Positions 1,911-61,802 of a stretch of 64,000 nt of DNA are shown here, piece after piece. A program made the position numbers and the translations under genes. The notes below the pieces were generated by a model. It was not told where the DNA came from. It saw only the letters and a list, made by a program, of their open reading frames with translations, and made no database searches. Source of the stretch: a virus (taxonomy: Duplodnaviria; Caudoviricetes). The stretch is from positions 1-64,000 of IMG/VR virus record IMGVR_UViG_3300037761_000271; one strand, 5' to 3'. The number at the start of each line of letters is the position of its first letter. The stretch's first letter is position 1.

Positions 1911-1982
1911 GCCCGCGTAGCTCAACGGGAGAGCGCCGCTTTCACACGGCGGAGGCCGGTGGTTCGACACCACTCGCGGGTA
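1911..1982 (+). tRNA. tRNA-Val(CAC)
   Basis: GCCCGCG/CGCGGGT acceptor; GCTC/GAGC D stem; CCGCT-TTCACAC-GGCGG; GGTGG-TTCGACA-CCACT. Confidence 0.9.
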
Positions 1983-1984
1983 CT

Positions 1985-2048
1985 GTGCCTGTAGTTCAAC
2001 GGTAGAGCGCCGGACGCGGGAGATGCGGGTTCGAGCCCCGCACGCACC
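1985..2048 (+). pseudogene. tRNA-like element lacking the anticodon loop
   Basis: Normal D arm and T arm (GCGGG-TTCGAGC-CCCGC); anticodon arm reduced to 10 nt CCGGACGCGG; imperfect acceptor stem. Confidence 0.7.
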
Positions 2049-2057
2049 GATCGGCAT

Positions 2058-2130
2058 GGTGGCTGTAGCTCAACGGCAGAGCGCCCGGCTGTGACCCGGG
2101 AGCGAGCGGGGTCGGCACCCGCCAGTCACC
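2058..2130 (+). tRNA. tRNA-His(GTG), atypical T-loop
   Basis: G-1 and C73; CCCGG-CTGTGAC-CCGGG; T-loop GTCGGCA. Confidence 0.8.
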
Positions 2131-2135
2131 CCCAA

Positions 2136-2218
2136 GCGCGTCGTGGGCGGCGGCACGCCCAGCTGCCTGTAAAGCAGTCGCGGATTACGCAGACCTGGCT
2201 CGACACCAGGGGCGCGCA
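2136..2218 (+). tRNA. tRNA-Tyr(GTA)
   Basis: GCGCGTC/GGCGCGC acceptor; GCTGC-CTGTAAA-GCAGT; long variable arm; CCTGG-CTCGACA-CCAGG. Confidence 0.8.
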
Positions 2219-2219
2219 C

Positions 2220-3050
2220 TTAGCCCAAGTACATCGAGATGGCGTGAGAGCGCCGGGAGAGCATCCAGGGCCGGATGGCGCGCAACACGGCCGTCGCCTC
2301 TGTGCGAGCACCGACGTTCCACACAAAGGTCTCGTTGTGGTGGGGCTGCTGCGGGGAGCGCCGGTATACGCGACCAGTGCCAGCGGTGGTGGCGAGTCTG
2401 TCTATTACATCTCGATCGATTGAGGCCAGACTAACTCCTGTCCGCAGAATTGATCCCTCGCCTTCGATGAGGCCAGCTGTCCACGCAGCGCCAACTGGGT
2501 CGGCAATTGTGAGGTCCCATCGCCGGGCTGCGGGCATCGGTGGCGCGTCAACGAAGTTTGCAAGCAGTCGCGCTACTGCTGCCCGGCGACGCTGCCCTAG
2601 GTATGATGCGGTCTGCTGGACGAGCCAGGAGACGTAGGCGCGGCGCTGGACCCGCACTATCCAGGATGGCTTGTGGCGGGGGTTCTTGGGTTGGTACTCG
2701 TACCGCGCGGCAAAGGGAATGAGCGTGAGGATGCGATCGGTCACGTCACGGTCGGTCATCTGGACCCGGACGACGCCACCGCCGGACTTCCGGGCTACGA
2801 ATGTGCCCTCTCCCTCCAGGAGGCCGGCGAGCCAGCCAGCGTCAGCCCCGGTGAGCGTAGGTAGGTTGCCGACTGGGCCGTAGGTGCAGTCGCGGCATGC
2901 CTTAGCAACAGGCCGTTTCGGCCGGCCGCACGCGCAGGGATAGCGGACACGCGCTTTCTGATCGCGGCAGACGCCGCACTCACGGTGCCTGCTATTGGGC
3001 CGAAACGTCGACTTGCACGTAGAGCAGGTACGCGATTCCGGTGTTCGCAT
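2220..3050 (-). CDS. Free-standing two-motif LAGLIDADG homing endonuclease with N-terminal Cys-rich region
   Basis: WLAGLLEGEGTF and WTAGLIEGEGSI motifs; CxxC pairs; likely start MRTPESRTC at 3050. Confidence 0.85.
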   Translation of the reverse strand: MRTPESRTCSTCKSTFRPNSRHRECGVCRDQKARVRYPCACGRPKRPVAKACRDCTYGPVGNLPTLTGADAGWLAGLLEGEGTFVARKSGGGVVRVQMTDRDVTDRILTLIPFAARYEYQPKNPRHKPSWIVRVQRRAYVSWLVQQTASYLGQRRRAAVARLLANFVDAPPMPAARRWDLTIADPVGAAWTAGLIEGEGSILRTGVSLASIDRDVIDRLATTAGTGRVYRRSPQQPHHNETFVWNVGARTEATAVLRAIRPWMLSRRSHAISMYLG

Positions 3051-3105
3051 GCGGTTGACCGTACCTCGCAGGTACGACAGCGGGTTCCCTCTCGCTCCCA
3101 CCCAT

Positions 3106-3177
3106 GTCCCCGTGGCGCAACGGAAGCGCACGGCCCTCCGAAGGCCGAGGCTGCTGGTTCGAATCCAGTCGGGGACG
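3106..3177 (+). tRNA. tRNA-Arg(CCG)
   Basis: GTCCCCG/CGGGGAC acceptor; CGGCC-CTCCGAA-GGCCG; GCTGG-TTCGAAT-CCAGT. Confidence 0.92.
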
Positions 3178-3182
3178 CTCAC

Positions 3183-3253
3183 GGTCGGATGCCCGAGTGG
3201 TTAGGGAGCGGGCTGCAACCCCGTCTACCCGGGTTCGAATCCCGGTCCGGCCT
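3183..3253 (+). tRNA. tRNA-Cys(GCA)
   Basis: GGTCGGA/TCCGGCC acceptor; GCGGG-CTGCAAC-CCCGT; CCGGG-TTCGAAT-CCCGG; U73. Confidence 0.92.
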
Positions 3254-3277
3254 CGATGCCATCCGCTGCGGAGACTA

Positions 3278-52886: not shown

Positions 52887-54076
52887 GACTGCCACGGTGG
52901 GTGCACCGGTTGTACGCTGCGGCGGGCGGCTGGTTCTGGCTGCCGTGCCCGGCATGCGGCGAGCACTTCGGCGGGCATGAGGCCGGCAACTGCTCCCGCG
53001 GTACCCGCACGGTGTGCCGCCGCTGCTCGGCCAGCCTCCGCTGCTGTGGTGGCGTGACGGTCAACGGCGAGCGGTTGCACCTGTCGTACGCCGGCCAGCC
53101 GGCAGGAGTAGCAGCTGTGACGCGGCTGGTCTGCTGGCTACGCGGGCATCAGCCGGTGAAGGTCATCGAGCGGGTCAAGCTGGACTCTGTCACACCGTGG
53201 GGAGCGGTCTGGGGCATAGTTGCTGCTCGGCTGGAATGCAGGCGGTGTGGTAGGACCGTAATCGGGGTCCCGCCGCGCCGCAGGGGTGAGCTGCCCGGCG
53301 GGTGGGTCGTGCCGTGACTGACCCGACCCCCGACTATCCCACGCAGTGGATCACCACCGATGCGGTTCGCAACAGCAGGCCGCCAGCAGGTCAGGCCCGG
53401 ACCTACCGTCAGCCGGCGTACACGGTCGGCTGGGTATGCGCGGTCGGCTCGTTGGCGCTGGCCCGTCTGATCGACCCGGACTGGCTGGCCGCTGTGACCG
53501 TGCTGGTCGCCTACCTGGCCGGTGGCTGGTGGATGCGTACCACCTACCGGCAGGCGAGGCCGGACCCGGTGCTCGTGTACGACCGCTGGCTTGCCCACCG
53601 CCGCCGCTGGACACCTGCCGACGTGGCCGCCTGGCTGGTCTACCGGTCGGGCCGCCTGGCCTGCCGGCTGCTGCGACGCCACAACGTGAGCTGTCGCGGC
53701 CGCCTGGACCATGTACGTCCCGACGGGACCGTGATCGAGGCGGGCAGCCGTGGCTGACCCGGCTTTGCCCAACCGGGTCGAGGTTGAGGCGTGGCTGGCA
53801 TCCCGCGCCCACCCCACCGGCTGGGCCACCACCTTGACGGGCCTGCCGTGGGAGATCATCCACCCGGTGTGCCGCATCGCCGCCGCCAGCCGTGTCCACC
53901 CGGCCGTAGTGCTCGGGGCGGCTGCGGCGTACACCGGCGACCGGGGCGACCGGGGCGTCCGGCAGGCCATCACCCAGCAGCTGACCCACCACGGCCACAC
54001 CCCACCCCCAGGCACCGGACCCAACCGCGCCACCCGCCGCGCCCAGACCAGGAACAGCCGCCGCGCTGCGAGGTGA
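52883..54076 (+). CDS. Hypothetical genes (52883-53317, 53314-53757, 53750-54076)
   Basis: Coupled ORFs. Confidence 0.55.
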
Positions 54077-54616: not shown

Positions 54617-54943
54617 ATGTTTCGGAGCGGGGAGGTCCGGCTCGTGGCAGCTCGAACAAGGCGGCTCCGTGCGGTAGGGCCAGGTGAGTCCGCGCAGGGA
54701 AGGAAGCCACCGCGTGTGACGGTAGCGGCCCAGAGCGGCAGCCACAGGGATCTGCTGGTCGCTCTGCGGTCCAGGATTGCCCAGGCAGTCGAGGACCCGA
54801 ACACGCCACCCCGGGATCTGGCGTCACTGTCGCGGCGGCTGCTGGAGATCGCTAAGGAGATCGAGGCGATCGATGCCGACGACCAGGGGGACGAAGTTGG
54901 TGCGGCAGCCGCGACGCCGGACGAACCGTGGGCTGCTACCTGA
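54617..54943 (+). CDS. terS: Terminase small subunit (start uncertain)
   Basis: DLLVALRSRIAQAV...PRDLASLSRRLLEI; position. Confidence 0.7.
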   Translation: MFRSGEVRLVAARTRRLRAVGPGESAQGRKPPRVTVAAQSGSHRDLLVALRSRIAQAVEDPNTPPRDLASLSRRLLEIAKEIEAIDADDQGDEVGAAAATPDEPWAAT

Positions 54944-56387
54944 GGCCCGTCACCTGATCTTGCCGAAGGGGATCCGGTCGTCCGGGTTCCCTTCGGTGCG
55001 GGAGACGTGCCGACGTGTCGGTATCGAGTTCGACCGGTGGCAGCAGGATCTGAACAGGTGCCTGCTGGCCAAGGACGCGGCCGGGTTGTACGCGGCCGAC
55101 ACCGCGGTGCTGTCGATCGCGCGCCAGGTGGGTAAGACCTTCGACGTGGGTGCGGTGGCGTTCGCGTTGTGTATCGCCACGCCGGGTCTGACGGTGGTGT
55201 GGACGGCGCACCGGTTCAAGGTGTCGCGCGAGTCATTCAACGAGATGCGGGCATGGGCGAAACGGCGCCAGCTCGCCGCGCACATCGACTACGACGAGAT
55301 CACCACTGGGGCGGGGAACGAGCAGATCCCGTTCCGCAATGATGCCCGGATCGTGTTCGCGGCCCGGGAGCGTGGGGCGATCCGCGGGTTCACCAAGGTC
55401 GGGGTGCTGGTGCTGGACGAGGCGCAGATCCTGACCGAGGCGGCGCTGTCGGACCTGGTGCCGACGACCAACCAGGCGCCGAACCCGCTGGTGATCCTGA
55501 TGGGCACACCGCCGAAGCCGACCGACCCGAGTGAGGTTTTTGTCCGGCTGCGGCAGGAGGCGCTGGACGGCGAGTCGGATGATGTGCTGTACGTCGAGCT
55601 GTCCGCCGACGCGAACGCCGACCCGAACGACCGTAGGCAGTGGCGCAAGGCGAACCTGTCGTACCCGGCCCGCACGTCGGAGCGGGCGATCCTGCGGCTG
55701 AAGAAGCTGCTGTCGGCCGAGGATTTCCTGCGGGAGGGGCTGGGGGTCTGGCCGGAGGGCGGCCTACCGAAGTGGCAGGTAATCAGCGAGGCGGCGTGGC
55801 TGGCCCGGCAGAAGACCACCCGCGCGCAGCTTCGGCTGGTCGACCCGGTGACGCTGGGGGTGGATGTCACCCCGGACCGGACCTGGTCGGCGGTCGCCGC
55901 CGCCGGTGACCGGGTCGGTGGCGGCCGGGCGGTGGAGGTCACCGCCGACCCGCAGGCGGCCGAGCTGCGGGACCGGGTGGACTACCGGCCGGGCACCGGC
56001 TGGGTGATACCCCGGCTGAAGACGCTGGTGGAACGCAACCGGCCGTGTGTGATCGTGATATCGGACCGGGCGCTGTTCGAGGAGGCCGAGGCGGCTGGGC
56101 TGCCGGCCTACCGGGCCAGCACCGGCGACCTGGCGTCGGCGGCGGCGAAGCTGTACGACGGGATCGCCGGCACCACCCCGGACGTGTGGCACTCACCCGA
56201 CCCGGACCTGGCCGATGCGGCGGCGGGGGCGACGAAGCGTCCGCTCGGCGATGGGTGGGCGTGGGACCGCCGCTCGGTCAGCGTCAACATCTGCACCCTG
56301 GTCGCCACCAGCCTGGCGTTGTGGGGGGCGGCAACACCTCGCATCCACGTTGCCCGGTTGACCCCGTTCGCCCTCGTCGGCAGCTAG
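54897..56387 (+). CDS. terL: Terminase large subunit
   Basis: ARQVGKT; WTAHR; RGF...LDEAQ; GTPP; LGVDV nuclease motif. Confidence 0.93.
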   Translation: MVRQPRRRTNRGLLPEARHLILPKGIRSSGFPSVRETCRRVGIEFDRWQQDLNRCLLAKDAAGLYAADTAVLSIARQVGKTFDVGAVAFALCIATPGLTVVWTAHRFKVSRESFNEMRAWAKRRQLAAHIDYDEITTGAGNEQIPFRNDARIVFAARERGAIRGFTKVGVLVLDEAQILTEAALSDLVPTTNQAPNPLVILMGTPPKPTDPSEVFVRLRQEALDGESDDVLYVELSADANADPNDRRQWRKANLSYPARTSERAILRLKKLLSAEDFLREGLGVWPEGGLPKWQVISEAAWLARQKTTRAQLRLVDPVTLGVDVTPDRTWSAVAAAGDRVGGGRAVEVTADPQAAELRDRVDYRPGTGWVIPRLKTLVERNRPCVIVISDRALFEEAEAAGLPAYRASTGDLASAAAKLYDGIAGTTPDVWHSPDPDLADAAAGATKRPLGDGWAWDRRSVSVNICTLVATSLALWGAATPRIHVARLTPFALVGS

Positions 56388-56390
56388 ATA

Positions 56391-56485
56391 CCCTCGCCTT
56401 GCCCCGCCTGGCCAAGCCAGGCCCGGCCTTGCCGCACCTAGCCATGCCCGGACTCGCCGTACCCAGCCGTGCCCCGCCAGGCCAC
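56391..56485 (-). ncRNA. GGY-NN pentamer array A (18 units), putative guide RNA
   Basis: Plus-strand units gcctt gcccc gcctg gccaa ... gccac in exact 5-nt register; 2 GGT and 1 GTC variants. Confidence 0.85.
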
Positions 56486-56486
56486 G

Positions 56487-57026
56487 CTAACTTTCTCCTC
56501 GCTCCAGCCGCTCCAGCCGAGCCTTGAGTTCCGCGATCTCCTCCTCGGACCGCTCGTGACGCTGGTCCATCGACGACAGGGACTCCTCCAGCCGTTTCTG
56601 TCGGATGTCCATCCGCCGGTTGAAGTCCATCTGTGCGGCGAATGCCCGCGCAACCAGCTCGAATGCCTGCCGGGTGTCCGGGTCCATGCCCGAGAAGTCG
56701 ACGTGGACCACCTTCGAATGACCGGAGCGTAGCGCCCGGTTCGACTTCCGCTGCTGCTGGCGGGCAAGCTGCATGTGCTCGGGTGGCCTCACCACCCGAT
56801 AGCCCTGGTTGGGGACCGCCTCGACCGCCCGCTTGTCGATCAGCTCATGTTCGCGGGCGGCCCGCCGCATCGCCATCTGTAGCTGGTGCCGGTCCCGGAC
56901 AGGATGCAGGCCGAGGGCGTCACCCATCTGCTGGTAGGTGAGGGTGTGGGCGGTCTCGGTGGCCCGGAGCAGGTCGTAGACGATCCGCCACCGGGGTTGC
57001 TCGCCGAGTGGCTGGAATGGTGCCAT
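56487..57026 (-). CDS. Accessory protein of the cassette, possible wHTH plus coiled coil
   Basis: ATG overlaps the upstream TGA; TLTYQQMGDALG...PNQGYRVV. Confidence 0.8.
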   Translation of the reverse strand: MAPFQPLGEQPRWRIVYDLLRATETAHTLTYQQMGDALGLHPVRDRHQLQMAMRRAAREHELIDKRAVEAVPNQGYRVVRPPEHMQLARQQQRKSNRALRSGHSKVVHVDFSGMDPDTRQAFELVARAFAAQMDFNRRMDIRQKRLEESLSSMDQRHERSEEEIAELKARLERLERGES

Positions 57027-57598
57027 CACGCGGTCTCGACCTTGGCGATGAACCGGCCGTAACGGGGGCGCCAGTCGCCCAGCCCGATCAGTTGTCCGGC
57101 GGTTTCGGCGATCGCCTCGACCTCGGCCAGGTCGATGACGTTGGTATCGATGTAGCCGAGGGCATCGGTGCGCCACTCGCGGAACATGGGCCGGCAGCGC
57201 ATGACCCGCTGCTGCCCGACCTTGGCGGACGCCAGCAGTCGGAAGTTCTCATCGGCCCACAGTCCGGCCGCGTCGCGTGGCCCGCGGTAGGCGAGCGGGT
57301 TCAGGTCGGACTTGATGAACACGCCTTCCTTGACCTTCGGCCCGCGCTTGGACTTCTTCGCCGCGTCGTAAAGGGCGCGCCAGATGTTCTCACCGGGGAT
57401 GAATGGGCCGATCTCCGAGTCGATGTAGAGCGACCCGGCGTGCTCCAGCCGGGCGATCTGTTCGTGGTCATCGTCGGTCTTGTTGCGCTTCCCGGTGATC
57501 CGCTTCATGGCCTTTGCGGCTGGGTCGAGCGGGTTGGACAGCCTGCCGCTGTGCATGAGCAGGCTGGTTGTGCCTTCGATGGTGATGCGGAAGTCCAT
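57026..57598 (-). CDS. RAMP/Cas7-like protein (Vipr-like effector)
   Basis: ITIEGTTSLLMH strand; PFIPGENIWRAL resembles the RAMP P.IPGS.KG motif; Gly-rich GLGDWRPRYGRF loop; GAGGAG RBS. Confidence 0.8.
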   Translation of the reverse strand: MDFRITIEGTTSLLMHSGRLSNPLDPAAKAMKRITGKRNKTDDDHEQIARLEHAGSLYIDSEIGPFIPGENIWRALYDAAKKSKRGPKVKEGVFIKSDLNPLAYRGPRDAAGLWADENFRLLASAKVGQQRVMRCRPMFREWRTDALGYIDTNVIDLAEVEAIAETAGQLIGLGDWRPRYGRFIAKVETA

Positions 57599-57624: not shown

Positions 57625-57699
57625 TCCCTGCCGCGCCCAGCCGTGCCTCGCCGAGCCCAACCTAGCCAGGCCGCGCCGGGCCCGGCCCCGCCCCGCCTT
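57625..57699 (-). ncRNA. GGY-NN pentamer array B (14 units), putative guide RNA
   Basis: Exact 5-nt register from 57630 to 57699. Confidence 0.85.
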
Positions 57700-57702
57700 G
57701 CG

Positions 57703-57744
57703 TGCGGTGGTCGGGAGTCGAACCCGACTGATGACCATCACCGC
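57703..57744 (-). ncRNA. tRNA-like acceptor/T-arm minihelix between arrays
   Basis: GCGGTG-atggtcatca-GTCGGG-TTCGACT-CCCGAC-CACCGC-A. Confidence 0.75.
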
Positions 57745-57746
57745 GC

Positions 57747-57816
57747 CCCATGCCCCGCCTCGACAAGCCGTGCCAAACCAAGACTCGCCACGCCCAGCCT
57801 CGCCTGGCCAAGCCGT
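57747..57816 (-). ncRNA. GGY-NN pentamer array C (13-14 units), putative guide RNA
   Basis: Exact 5-nt register from 57752 to 57816. Confidence 0.85.
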
Positions 57817-57819
57817 GCA

Positions 57820-57870
57820 CCCGCAATATACCACGCTTTACGGGATACATACCACGTCTATACCGTGATA
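57820..57870 (-). promoter_or_regulatory. Cassette promoter with repeated operator-like boxes
   Basis: Extended -10 TGgTATATT (minus strand, 57825-57833); ATACCACG at 57828 and 57849; ATACCGTG at 57860. Confidence 0.6.
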
Positions 57871-57883
57871 GAGGGGATGCTGT

Positions 57884-59272
57884 GTGAGCTGGTGGCGGAG
57901 GCTGCTGGGGCTCCAGCGGGCCACCAGCACCGAGTTGCAGAAACGGTCGGCCCTGTCCTGGCAGGATTATGTTGATCTTTTCAGTTTTGGTGGCTCCAGC
58001 TATCCGCTGCTGAACACCACCATGGCCTCGATGAACGAGGAGGCCATCGGGTCGACCCTGTCGCAGGTGGCCAAGTCCAACGGGCCGGTATTCGCGCTGC
58101 TGCTCGCCCGGCTACAGGTGTTCTCCCAGGCCCGGTTCCAGTGGACCCGCTTCGACCGGGGGGCGCCCGCCGACCTGTTCGGCACGGACGAGCTGGCTGT
58201 GCTGGAGCGGCCGTGGCCGGGTGGAACCACCGCGGACCTGCTCGCCCGGATGGAGATCCAGGTCACCACTGCCGGGAACGCCTATGTGCGCCGGGTCGGC
58301 CGGGGCGAGAAGTCCCGGCTGATCTGCCTGCGGCCGGAGTGGATGTACATCGTCCTCGGGTCGCAGACCGACGCCGACCACCCGGCCGAAGCCGCCGACG
58401 TGGAGCTGCTCGGCTACGTCTACAAGCCACCCAACGCGAAGATGGTCACGTTCCTGCCCGAGGAGATCGCTCACTACGCGCCGATCCCGGACCCGGACGC
58501 CACCTACCTGGGCATGTCCTGGATCACCGCCGCCCTGCGGGACATCTCCGGCGACAACCTGATGACCGACCACAAGCGCGCCTTCCTCCGCAACGCGGCC
58601 ACCCCCAACATGGTGATCAAGTTCGACCCCAGCATCACGCTTGCGGCGGTCAAGGAGTTCAAAGAGGTCTTCGAGGCCGAGCACCAGGGCGCGCTGAACG
58701 CATACAAGACGGTGTACCTGGGCGGCGGCGCCGACGCGACCGTGGTCGGCAAAGACTTCCAGCAGTTGGAGTTCGCGGTCACCCAGGGCAAGGCCGAGTC
58801 GCGGCTGGCATCCTGCGCCGGGGTCCCCCCGTCCTGGGTCGGATTCTCCGAAGGGCTCCAGGGTTCGTCGCTCAACGCGGGCAACTTCACCGCCGCCAGG
58901 CGCCGCTTCGGCGACGGAACCATGCAGCACATGTGGATGAACGTCGCCGCCAGCCTGGAGATCCTGGTCCGCCGACCCAGCGTCGGCGTGTACCTGTGGT
59001 TCGCCACGAAGGGCATCCCGTTCCTGCACATGGACGCGAAGGACGCGGCCGAGGTGCAGGCCACCGAGGCGCAGACCATCACCGCGCTGGTGCGGGACGG
59101 GTTCACCGCCCAGTCGGCGATCCTCGCGGTCCAGAACCACGACTGGTCCCGCCTGGTGCACACCGGGAGGGTTTCTGTCCAGCTCCAGACCCCCGGTGAG
59201 GCGGACGCGGCGCAGGTCAACGGCAACGGCGCCCGGCGCGGAGAGCTGATCGTCGGTGCCCTGCGGCCATGA
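57884..59272 (+). CDS. Portal protein
   Basis: Position after terL; TTAGNAYV; LRPEWM; F..NAATPN; GVPP. Confidence 0.9.
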   Translation: MSWWRRLLGLQRATSTELQKRSALSWQDYVDLFSFGGSSYPLLNTTMASMNEEAIGSTLSQVAKSNGPVFALLLARLQVFSQARFQWTRFDRGAPADLFGTDELAVLERPWPGGTTADLLARMEIQVTTAGNAYVRRVGRGEKSRLICLRPEWMYIVLGSQTDADHPAEAADVELLGYVYKPPNAKMVTFLPEEIAHYAPIPDPDATYLGMSWITAALRDISGDNLMTDHKRAFLRNAATPNMVIKFDPSITLAAVKEFKEVFEAEHQGALNAYKTVYLGGGADATVVGKDFQQLEFAVTQGKAESRLASCAGVPPSWVGFSEGLQGSSLNAGNFTAARRRFGDGTMQHMWMNVAASLEILVRRPSVGVYLWFATKGIPFLHMDAKDAAEVQATEAQTITALVRDGFTAQSAILAVQNHDWSRLVHTGRVSVQLQTPGEADAAQVNGNGARRGELIVGALRP

Positions 59273-59294
59273 CAACTCCAGGACGGAGACGGAT

Positions 59295-61802
59295 GTGACC
59301 ACCACAACGGTGACCGGTGTGGACCTGCGGTCCGCGCTGCGGCTGTGCTACCGGTCGGTGGAGTTCCGCGCCACCGGGCCGGTCGGCGACGGGCGCACCC
59401 TGGAAGGCTACGCCGCGGTCTTCGACACCCCCACGATCATCGAGTCGTTCGCCGGGGACTTCGAGGAGGTTGTCAAGCGGGGCGCGTTCCGCAAGACGCT
59501 GCGGGACCGCATGCCGGTGATGCAGTTCGACCACGGCAACGACAAGCGCACCGGCAGTGTGCCGATCGCCTCGATCGAGGATCTGCGGGAGGACGACGAA
59601 GGTCTGTTCGTCAACGCGCGGCTGTTCGCCAACGACGTGGTGGAACCGATCCGGCAGGCAGTCGCAGGCAAAGCCATCCGCGGCATGTCGTTCAAGTTCC
59701 GGGTGATCCGGGACCAGTGGGTCGACCGTGACGGGAAGAAGATCCCCGCCGACGACCTGGCCGGCCTGCTTGAGAACCCGGGCGACCGCGGGCCGATCCG
59801 CCGGGAGATCCAAGAGGTCGAACTGTTCGAACTGGGCCCGGTGGTGTTCCCGGCCTACACGCAGACCAGTGTCGGCGTACGTGGCTCCCGGTTCGACTCT
59901 AACGCCGTGGCGGTGCGGGGTGTGCTGGGCCAGTTCGGGCTGGATGAGCGTTGCGTGCAGCGGCACCTGGCCGGGTTCGACCCGCAGGAGCGGCAGGTCC
60001 TCGCCGAAGAGGTGGTGGCCGCGTTCCCGGAGCTGGCCGACCTGCTGACCGCGCGGGCCACCCCACCGGCCGACCCGGCGCCGGCTGCCGAGCCCGAGCC
60101 TGAGCCGACCCCACCCGCACCAGTACCCACCCCGCCCCCGGCGCCTTCCCCGGCCCCGCCGGGCGGTGCCCAGAGCTCCCCGCAGCCGGCCGCGGCCACT
60201 GCGGGACCCACCACCACCGAGCCGGCCCCCAGCCACTCGGCGTCCAAGCCGGAGCCGCGTAAGCACTCCAAGGCACCCAAGCCGCCGGTAGCCAGCCGTG
60301 CGGCGACCAAGCCAGCCACAACTAGCCAGAGGAGTGACAACGTGCAGCCCACGATGACCGTGGACGAACGGCGGGAGCGGCAGGAGGAGATCCGCGCCCG
60401 CCTCACCGAGATCGACAACGAGTACATGGGTGCCGCCCTGCCGGATGAGACCCGGGAGGAGTGGGGCCGGCTGTCCGAGGAGCACCAGACCCACCAGGTG
60501 GCCATCGACGACGCGGAGCGGCGCCGGGTCAACCTGGAGAGCCTGTTCGCCCAGGGCCGCGGCGTGGAGGGTGGCGCCGGGATCACCACGGTGACCACCC
60601 CGGGTCTGCTGGCCAAGCGCACCGACTCGGACCTGTACGACCTGCGGGAGATCCGCCGGTCGGCATCCTCGGAGGATGACCTGCGCCGGCTGTACCGGGA
60701 GCGGGCCTACGAGGCGGTGGAGCGGGCCAAGTTCCCCGGGCAGAAGAACAAGGAGCGGGCGCAGGCCCGGGCGCTGGAGCTGCTGGACACGGTCGACGAC
60801 GAGTCGGCGACCCTGGCCCGGCGGATGCTGGCCACCGGATCCCCGCTGTACGACCGCGCGTTCGGTAAGGCGGTGCTGGCCCGGTCCACCTCCGGGCTGA
60901 CCGCGGAGGAGGCCCGGGCGCTGTCCGTGGGCTCCGACTCCGACGGCGGGTTCGCCGTCCCGTTCCAGCTCGACCCGACGATCATCCTCACGTCGGACGG
61001 GTCCAGCAACCCGCTGCGGCAGATCAGCCGGGTGGAGACGATCGTCGGCAAGGAATGGCAGGGTGTCACCTCCGCCGGGATCACGGTCACCCGCACCCCG
61101 GAGGTGCAGGAGGCCACCGACGACGCGCCCGAGGTGGACCAGCCGGTCGTTCGGCCCAGCGCGGTGCACGCGTTCGTTCCGTTCTCCATGGACGTGGAGC
61201 AGGACTGGACGCGGCTGCGGGCCGAGATGACCCGGCTGCTGAACAACGCCAAGGACGACGAAGAGGCCGAGTCGTTCGTCAACGGCGACGGGTCCCTGAT
61301 CAGTGGCGGCGGGCACACCCCGGACGGCATCGCCGCCGGGCTGGCCGCGGCCAGCGAGGTACCCGGCGGCGCGTCGTTCACCTCCCAGGACCTGTACGAC
61401 CTGGAGGCCGGCGACAACGGGCTGGGTGAGCGGTTCCTCGCCCGGGCCGTCTGGCTGGCCAACCGCAGCATCTACAACCTGGTGCGGCAGTTCGACACCT
61501 CCGGTGGTGCCGACCTGTGGGTGCGGCTCGGCGCGGGTCAGCCACCTGAGCTGATCGGCTACTCGGCCTTCCGCGCCTCGGCGATGCCGTCCAGCCCCAC
61601 CGGCCGGTACCTGATCCTGGGCGACTTCAACGAGTTCCTGGTTGTGGACCGTGTCGGCATGTCGGTCGAGCTTGTGCCTCATTTGTTCGGTGCGGCCCGG
61701 CGGTTCCCGACCGGGCAGCGGGGCATCTACGCCCGGTGGCGGAACACCACCAAGATCCTGGTGGACAACGCGTTCCGAGTCCTGACGGACGACGAGTCCT
61801 GA
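59295..61802 (+). CDS. HK97-type prohead protease-major capsid fusion
   Basis: LEGYAAVF..GAF..FDHG..ED..GL protease domain; Pro-rich linker; GGFAVPFQLD capsid domain; internal RBS+GTG at 60342. Confidence 0.9.
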   Translation: MTTTTVTGVDLRSALRLCYRSVEFRATGPVGDGRTLEGYAAVFDTPTIIESFAGDFEEVVKRGAFRKTLRDRMPVMQFDHGNDKRTGSVPIASIEDLREDDEGLFVNARLFANDVVEPIRQAVAGKAIRGMSFKFRVIRDQWVDRDGKKIPADDLAGLLENPGDRGPIRREIQEVELFELGPVVFPAYTQTSVGVRGSRFDSNAVAVRGVLGQFGLDERCVQRHLAGFDPQERQVLAEEVVAAFPELADLLTARATPPADPAPAAEPEPEPTPPAPVPTPPPAPSPAPPGGAQSSPQPAAATAGPTTTEPAPSHSASKPEPRKHSKAPKPPVASRAATKPATTSQRSDNVQPTMTVDERRERQEEIRARLTEIDNEYMGAALPDETREEWGRLSEEHQTHQVAIDDAERRRVNLESLFAQGRGVEGGAGITTVTTPGLLAKRTDSDLYDLREIRRSASSEDDLRRLYRERAYEAVERAKFPGQKNKERAQARALELLDTVDDESATLARRMLATGSPLYDRAFGKAVLARSTSGLTAEEARALSVGSDSDGGFAVPFQLDPTIILTSDGSSNPLRQISRVETIVGKEWQGVTSAGITVTRTPEVQEATDDAPEVDQPVVRPSAVHAFVPFSMDVEQDWTRLRAEMTRLLNNAKDDEEAESFVNGDGSLISGGGHTPDGIAAGLAAASEVPGGASFTSQDLYDLEAGDNGLGERFLARAVWLANRSIYNLVRQFDTSGGADLWVRLGAGQPPELIGYSAFRASAMPSSPTGRYLILGDFNEFLVVDRVGMSVELVPHLFGAARRFPTGQRGIYARWRNTTKILVDNAFRVLTDDES

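Follow-up and report, generated by a model that had tools for sequence, protein, structure and literature searches.

The locus analysed here raises the question of why a phage should carry, beside its portal gene, a short RNA array that appears to spell out a piece of that same gene, and to spell it imperfectly. The window (the whole stretch of 64,000 nucleotides that was analysed, positions 1 to 64,000 of IMG/VR virus record IMGVR_UViG_3300037761_000271) is phage DNA of 70% GC, from a source contig of 86 kb. A cassette of 1.5 kb lies on its minus strand between the gene of the terminase large subunit (terL) and the portal gene (Table 1). Read along the minus strand, it consists of a -10 box, a first array of pentamers (array C), a hairpin, a second array (B), the gene of a 190-aa protein (P0002), the gene of a 179-aa protein (P0001) and a third array (A). 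We conclude that this insert is a VIPR (Viral Interference Programmable Repeat) system, in which a Vipr RAMP protein is joined by a Vap-like partner with a winged helix and by three vrRNAs. The reading that we favour, to which we assign a probability of about 0.6, is that guide C of this system is aimed at the portal genes of sibling phages and that the phage's own allele is spared.

VIPR was described in 2026 (bioRxiv 10.64898/2026.04.26.720920, 10.64898/2026.04.26.720927, 10.64898/2026.10.15.759431). According to these preprints, a system has three parts: the Vipr RAMP protein, a partner encoded by vap, and vrRNAs in which 9-16 YNNGG repeats precede a structured tail. The target is double-stranded DNA, with which the NN bases pair; for each dinucleotide one target base, at the wobble position of the codon, is skipped. 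Either strand can be targeted, no PAM (protospacer adjacent motif) is required, and the outcome is that transcription of rival phages, satellites and prophages is repressed. The cryo-electron microscopy reported there shows that one protomer grips each GGY and that the skipped target base is flipped into a pocket. The preprints give no self hits at or above 80% NN identity in three VIPR groups and place the natural targets in rival elements; their 80% cut-off was adopted as a convention for bioinformatic work and does not represent a measured binding threshold.

The cassette was assigned to VIPR because sequence, fold and anatomy agree. P0002 is a member of phrog_4652, with more than 670 homologs, and is 34% identical over its full length (BLASTP, E 2e-39) to protein ALH47200.1 of Escherichia phage SUSP2, which itself lies between NNGGT arrays. 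Its AlphaFold2 model (predicted local distance difference test score, pLDDT, of 91) gave Csm3/Cas7 as top Foldseek matches (E 4e-6) and Z scores of 8-10.7 to Csm3, Cmr4, Cas7-11 and Csf2 in VIA. The model of P0001, for which 159 homologs were found, contains a winged helix (residues 12-78, pLDDT about 88) and a 60-residue C-terminal helix, and Foldseek returned for it weak MarR/GntR/OmpR-type winged-helix matches alone (E 0.008 or higher). Pfam and PADLOC hold no family for either protein. The pentamers of the three arrays are composed of two variable bases followed by GGC or GGT, rarely GTC, and in a period-5 scan of the window arrays A, B and C were the sole period-5 GCC arrays; on the 86-kb contig, the period-5 tracts at 53984-54033 and 83772-83811 were rejected as guides, being G-rich coding sequence. 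In 80 IMG/VR loci with vipr relatives, all of the 142 NN-GGY arrays that were found lie on the gene strand (with the window included, 145 arrays, again without one on the opposite strand, carried by 65 of 81 loci), and close relatives keep GGC/GGT while NN differs. The cassette has the following traits by which VIPR is recognised: the Vipr RAMP, same-strand pentamer arrays, a coupled vap-like gene, a one-nucleotide skip that falls on wobble positions, and at least 80% NN identity to related portals, with no such match on its own contig. It is set apart from class 1 CRISPR-Cas in that the tandem-repeat scan shows just period-5 tracts and the cassette holds two genes.

Array C, read on the minus strand from 57816 to 57752, is ACGGC TTGGC CAGGC GAGGC TGGGC GTGGC GAGTC TTGGT TTGGC ACGGC TTGTC GAGGC GGGGC; the third to fifth bases are GGC in ten of the 13 pentamers, GGT in one and GTC in two. 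Its NN string (AC TT CA GA TG GT GA TT TT AC TT GA GG) is exactly the one quoted in the original prediction, which was made from the sequence alone and held that this string, read as NNx, decodes to the 5' end of the adjacent portal gene. We reproduced this alignment: at 57956 on the plus strand, in the portal frame, 20 of 26 positions are identical (seven perfect pairs and six single mismatches), the plus strand being the guide-identical, non-target strand. A score of 20 is the single maximum over 128,000 positions on both strands, followed by 17 (once) and 15 (nine times). When the 13 dinucleotides were permuted 15,000 times, at least 20 was reached anywhere in the window in 0.05% of the trials, and the same percentage was obtained by shuffling single letters; over the whole 86-kb contig, shuffles reached 20 in 2 of 1000. 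The match is real, but the accompanying estimate of about 0.005 chance hits per window was somewhat high, since shuffles reach this score more rarely; with a correction for about nine tests, p is near 0.005.

The same prediction had the guide skip the wobble base, and this stood. Only a skip of one base gives a signal, both in the window and in the 142 arrays, which is the one-nucleotide skip rule of the preprints. Guide C had no match in the window at spacings of 0 or 2 skipped bases; for arrays A and B there was no match on the own contig at any spacing, and no exact IMG/VR match to their 11-unit patterns. When the 142 arrays were compared with their own 6.5-kb loci, seven gave p<0.01 at skip 1, none at skip 0 and none at skip 2. 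This test across arrays reproduces the published rule without assuming it.

Read in this way, guide C spells T-[F/L]-[Q/H]-[D/E]-[W/C]-V-[D/E]-[F/L]-[F/L]-T-[F/L]-[D/E]-G, and the phage's own portal has SWQDYVDLFSFGG at this place, within the N-terminal 110 residues that are conserved in 185 homologs. In a scan of 81 related portal loci, the best match of guide C lay at the homologous portal site in most of them. The highest score was 23/26, in locus L081 (AFQDWVDLFKFDG), where every third base is G or C and no cassette is present; twelve portal loci, L082 and L083 among them, scored 22/26, and three scored 21/26. Scores of 22-23/26 correspond to 85-88%, above the conventional 80% cut-off, whereas the own copy, at 77%, is below it. 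The third positions of these higher-scoring sites are GC-rich, so the match of guide C does not depend on the AT-rich composition of the own site. In a 1-Mb pool, the maxima of shuffled versions of guide C were 20, as compared to the observed 23. The own allele differs from the guide at five residues. At each of these a guide-compatible residue is found in 9-58% of 120 homologs, and in two cases the majority of homologs have it (F/L where the own allele has W, and W where it has Y). Since the residues that it spells occur in natural homologs, guide C corresponds to a natural allele of a conserved portal motif. These results support the proposal that the guide targets competitor portal alleles, and the comparison of sequences suggests that it is directed against sister phages which compete with this phage for a common host. 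As a side observation, L096 and L097, whose portals score 22/26 with guide C, have three long NNGGY arrays of their own, on the opposite strand and a short way downstream of the portal (L096:2164-3635 and L097:3217-4688, minus strand of the loci); these arrays had no match in their own loci.

The nearest kin of the window at this place, L082, lacks the cassette. Its identity to the window is 95% both at the terL end and in the portal (from 57885), with 96 nt in place of the insert, and in L081, L082, L162 and L163 alike the portal follows terL after 0-96 nt, without a cassette. An empty site was also found in a sister sediment metagenome (public run X4), in a contig where 56385 is joined to 57940 with 148 letters between. 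Compared with L082, 33 differences fall within the first 112 nt of the portal gene; the 94 nt that follow are identical, and the rest of the gene (~1,280 nt) has 43 differences (about 3%). The last difference of the dense tract, at 57995, is one base past the end of the target. Nucleotides 1-42 of the portal are identical at 41 of 42 positions to L163, which represents another, cassette-less portal lineage; nucleotides 43-112 are unlike any relative found; and near-identity to the L082 lineage begins at nucleotide 113 (99% over residues 38-120). Because two lineages contribute to the portal 5' end, we regard it as a mosaic flank that bounds the cassette and holds a poorly matching site. L162 and L163 were considered as donors of this 5' end and rejected: they share its first 42 nt, but in them terL adjoins the portal and there is no cassette.

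Within the target, 5 of the 26 guide-read positions differ between the own allele and L082. The own allele has six NN mismatches, two more than L082 (site PFQDWVDLFSFGG, 22/26, one T-ending codon), and both guide-relevant substitutions, F to W and W to Y, lower the match relative to L082. It had been proposed that the guide travels with an immune allele; the empty site of L082 and a diverged tract that ends one base past the target are circumstantial evidence for this, and selection is not proven. On these alignments, the poorly matching own allele is circumstantially linked to the guide, a detail that is new, and the own copy is probably spared, which would make the phage immune to its own guide. 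Two metagenomic contigs are worth recording besides. Run X4 contains a 3.1-kb contig of high depth with a vipr-vap pair about 15% diverged and with different flanks, and public run X2 a 315-nt contig that spans array C and the portal 5' end, with 13 differences.

The features of the locus are collected in Table 1. TGGTATATTGC is invariant across the window and L001-L003, and the DNA upstream of it is unrelated. As a scan with the sigma-70 consensus found no full -35/-10 pair for the cassette, its promoter is put forward as a putative one, from the -10 box. Array C is followed by a hairpin whose tip, TCGGG TTCGACT CCCGA, resembles the T arm of a transfer RNA (tRNA), and then by the acceptor-like CCACCGCACGC. 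The hairpin has a minimum free energy of -23.4 kcal/mol, yet a z of -0.46, and is therefore not better than shuffles. T-loop tails of the GGTTCGA type stand behind at least 35 of the 142 arrays of related loci (L003, L005, L007, L017, L022, L039 and others), and arrays A and B have no clear structured tail. Neither Rfam (gathering threshold, and E up to 1) nor ARAGORN gave a match within the cassette. In the first VIPR preprint, tails with pseudoknots and arrays separated by hammerheads are described, and the word tRNA is absent from its main text.

Table 1. Features of the cassette and of the genes on either side of it (positions in the window).
Feature	Position	Strand	Remarks
Terminase large subunit gene (terL)	54777..56387	+	Convergent with cassette; phrog_9 and phrog_2, E 2e-43
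vrRNA array A, 18 pentamers	56396..56485	-	Begins directly after vap stop codon
vap-like partner gene, 179 aa (P0001)	56487..57026	-	Coupled to vipr via overlapping TGATG
vipr, Cas7-like RAMP protein, 190 aa (P0002)	57026..57598	-	
vrRNA array B, 14 pentamers	57630..57699	-	Runs into vipr 5' leader
vrRNA C 3' tail: hairpin, T-arm-like tip, then CCACCGCACGC	57700..57751	-	
vrRNA array C, 13 NN-GGY pentamers	57752..57816	-	Sequence read directly
Extended -10 box TGGTATATT, putative cassette promoter	57825..57833	-	About 8 nt before first array C pentamer
Hyper-diverged mosaic portal 5' end	57884..57995	+	Contiguous with cassette
Portal gene, 462 aa	57884..59272	+	Pfam Phage_portal, E 5e-31
Near-cognate own site, portal codons 25-37 (SWQDYVDLFSFGG)	57956..57994	+	20/26 to guide C, NNx register

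The mode of action that we propose for array C is taken by analogy from the published SUSP1 system. Array C would be transcribed from its own promoter, and Vipr protomers would polymerise along vrRNA C as a filament, each holding one GGY and presenting the next NN. The 13 dinucleotides would pair with the template strand of the portal gene at codons 25-37, with the complement of every wobble base flipped out, and the resulting gapped R-loop would block transcription of the portal and of the head genes behind it. Tight linkage between the guide and a poorly matching allele would keep recombination from producing genomes that silence themselves.

Matches between a guide and the gene next to its cassette recur in other loci beyond what shuffling leads one to expect. 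For 6 of the 142 arrays the own locus is the strict best of the 80 loci, as compared to fewer than two expected. Because short arrays (9-10 units) reach 80% by chance in the 1-Mb pool, the own-locus hits of L017, L018, L020, L059 and L065 were counted solely through their shuffle p-values. Two loci stand out most clearly: L074, with 25/32 at 190 nt from the array, and L002, whose vipr is 88% identical to that of the window. In L002 the final 11 codons and the stop of a convergent neighbour gene (DADYDILASFY and stop) are matched by the last guide at 20/28, in codon register; this own-flank match (L002:4395-4508) begins 4 nt past the array end and its third bases are A/T-rich, and a weaker form of the arrangement was seen at L001:4117-4300. 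The first guide of L002 (L002:2882-2966) matches at 26/34 the conserved terL motif TDPxA[IV]FxTECLCxRV of two different phages (L083:193 and L099:1435); shuffled guides reach at most 23, and the window's own terL scores 20/34. Tentatively, packaging and head genes of siblings seem to be frequent targets of the guides of this clade, and the gene beside the insert an occasional one.

The third bases of the own site also had been noted, eight of its 13 codons ending in T. This count is correct, and contrasts with 12 of 449 codons in the rest of the portal (binomial 3e-10); in 20,000 permutations no 13-codon window of the portal reached eight T-ending codons. The patch has a GC content of 0.44, in the lowest 0.06% of 39-nt windows, and with respect to L082 eight of the 13 third positions differ, seven of them with T in the own allele and the eighth as part of TGG for TTC. 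Recoding of this kind could not in any simple way free the own copy from the guide, however, under the code as the preprints describe it, in which third bases are not read. We compared ten near-cognate own-locus sites with shuffled-guide controls, and A/T at the skipped bases was in excess only in the window and in L002 (each about 0.03). A general A/T enrichment at skipped bases was therefore rejected, the other eight sites resembling the controls. At the skipped bases of near-cognate sites T is not generally favoured over A, which weakens the idea of strand-specific deamination. Possibly the T-ending patch affects binding through the flipped base or through local melting, or else is a mutational trace of weak self-binding. 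The sigma-70 scan mentioned above gave a single terminator-like site inside the patch, at chance level.

Several observations weigh against the view that guide C is aimed at siblings while a linked own allele is spared. In its score the own allele falls short of that of its nearest kin by just 2 of the 26 guide positions. Of four changes at mismatched positions three are gains, for which the chance probability is about 0.1, so that the data argue weakly for an own allele that is specifically more mismatched. The divergence spans the whole first 112 nt and not the target alone, and an ordinary recombination joint would look alike. No donor lineage having both the cassette and the own portal 5' end was found, and exact IMG/VR searches with the own patch (32 nt) and with array C (35 nt) gave no other carrier. 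In all collections scanned no perfect target was found, the best being 23/26, and exact gapped patterns gave no near-perfect one either; the pattern search that the original prediction had proposed gave no IMG/VR match with the 13-unit and QDWVDLFxFDG patterns, and the exact 12-unit and FQDWVDLFxFDG patterns had no match in JGI metagenomes or GTDB genomes.

These points lead to the alternative that survives best. It keeps the VIPR guide and its portal-family target, and holds that the cassette came in by ordinary mosaic recombination and that the state in which the own site is found is incidental; neither the mismatches nor the T-ending patch would have been selected for immunity, and weak binding at the own site may be without consequence. 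It accounts well for a diverged stretch that extends beyond the 39-nt target, for a flank patched together from two known portal lineages and a unique stretch, for an own score of 20 that falls within the upper quarter of the 81 relatives, and for AT-rich skipped bases that are not general at near-cognate self sites. It does not predict that the diverged tract should stop within one base of the target end, that both F to W and W to Y should lower the match, or that near-cognate matches to cassette-flanking genes should recur in other loci. Taken together, we consider it unlikely.

A second alternative takes the own portal site as the intended target. In that case vrRNA C would dampen or time the transcription of the phage's own portal and head genes, for instance to keep late genes silent in a prophage, and the easily melted T-rich patch would compensate for the mismatches. 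The site, 72-110 nt into the first gene after the cassette, is well placed for a roadblock, in AT content the patch belongs to the top 0.06% of the window, and the last guide of L002 offers a parallel in its AT-rich match to the final codons of the adjacent gene. A dedicated self-regulator, however, would be expected to match its own site best, and here the better matches are those of relatives; for arrays A and B there is no site on the own contig, and the targets in the preprints belong to rival elements, without self hits at 80% or above in three VIPR groups. For these reasons self-regulation appears improbable. That 20/26 arose by chance, between a guide rich in T (10 T in 26 letters) and a patch unusually rich in T, one of three arrays and one of several spacings having been picked post hoc, is close to refuted by the rarity of such scores in composition-preserving shuffles, the GC-rich sites of relatives that score 22-23, the codon register at a conserved motif, and the shuffled maxima of 20 against 23 in the 1-Mb pool.

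We therefore keep to a guide aimed at sibling portals and a spared own allele. The core of this reading is in print as VIPR. What is new is that the target would be the portal of siblings and that a sub-threshold own allele would be linked to the guide, and for both the evidence is circumstantial. A broader proposal, which we put forward tentatively and hold to be rather doubtful, is that the VIPR cassettes of this actinophage clade are selfish modules, each a guide plus a resistant allele, in which the guide is directed against the gene that borders the insertion site in cassette-less siblings and the insert brings a diverged copy of this flank with it, and which spread through the phage population by silencing rivals and recombining with them. 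The own-flank excess at skip 1 only, the six strict-best loci where fewer than two are expected, and the case of L002 support it. If it is true, the T-ending patch could be the trace of chronic weak self-binding or of selection on the flipped base. Should selection indeed link the guide and the spared allele, VIPR would be a gene-drive-like element as well as a weapon, and this would have consequences for the way in which repertoires of guides change over time where no machinery acquires them.

Whatever its evolutionary history, the locus extends VIPR, of which the systems studied so far come from coliphages and Pseudomonas prophages, to high-GC actinophages, and its predicted target is a structural gene that is essential to sibling phages. 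In addition, the locus and its relatives form a natural graded series, from 20/26 (own, with T-rich third bases) through 22/26 (nearest kin) to 23/26 (a cassette-less relative), for the study of mismatch tolerance and of the effect of the skipped base; the VIPR preprints, as far as their available text goes, report no such graded measurements. Other features of the window were noted in passing. An open reading frame of 848 aa behind the portal (59256-61802, plus strand) joins a prohead protease (Peptidase_S78, residues 37-213) to a capsid domain (Phage_capsid, residues 564-844), and in L162 and L163 protease and capsid are two separate genes (~315 aa and ~490 aa). Near the contig start, five tRNA genes (Val, His, Tyr, Arg, Cys) were found by ARAGORN at 1911-3254 on the plus strand, and a sixth, weak Rfam tRNA match lies in this cluster at 1985-2048.

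Among known systems, the cassette is most readily compared with Type II VIPR, represented by Escherichia phages SUSP1 and SUSP2 and by a Pseudomonas fulva prophage. They share a small RAMP with a single RNA recognition motif (34% identical to the SUSP2 protein), a partner gene of DNA-binding type that follows it immediately, GGY/NN guides that flank the genes on the gene strand, one base skipped per dinucleotide, and codon-register targets in genes of rival phages, with the own contig below 80%. Unlike the Type II systems, the phage of the window is actinobacterial, with 70% GC; the tail of array C is a tRNA-like T-arm hairpin, not a pseudoknot as in SUSP1; one array has 18 units, as compared to the stated 9-16; the predicted target is the portal of sibling phages, not a satellite recombinase, prophage regulators or vipr; and a 77% near-cognate copy lies 140 nt from the guide, in a diverged flank.

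With the backbone proteins of class 1 CRISPR-Cas (Csm3, Cmr4, the Cas7-11 domains and Csf2 of type IV) the cassette has in common the RAMP fold and a predicted protein filament on a guide RNA, with a thumb that breaks the duplex periodically. It differs from them in a period of 5 nt with 2 paired bases, as opposed to 6 nt with 5 paired, and in having neither a repeat-spacer array nor other cas genes; its guides are hard-wired, not acquired.

A different likeness is to the free-standing homing endonucleases, such as those of the seg and mob genes of T-even phages. These are selfish inserts amid conserved genes that attack the neighbour gene of relatives lacking the insert; the linked own allele differs at the recognition site, and flank and insert are co-inherited (marker exclusion). 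The cassette encodes no nuclease, and any spread of it by recombination or repair-mediated co-conversion would be hypothetical; the published VIPRs of its type are reported to repress and not to cut, and its target would be recognised by an RNA. The pattern seen here nevertheless resembles the logic of these endonucleases, and if the cassettes of this clade are selfish modules, they may, by this analogy, be an RNA-guided counterpart of homing-endonuclease marker exclusion.

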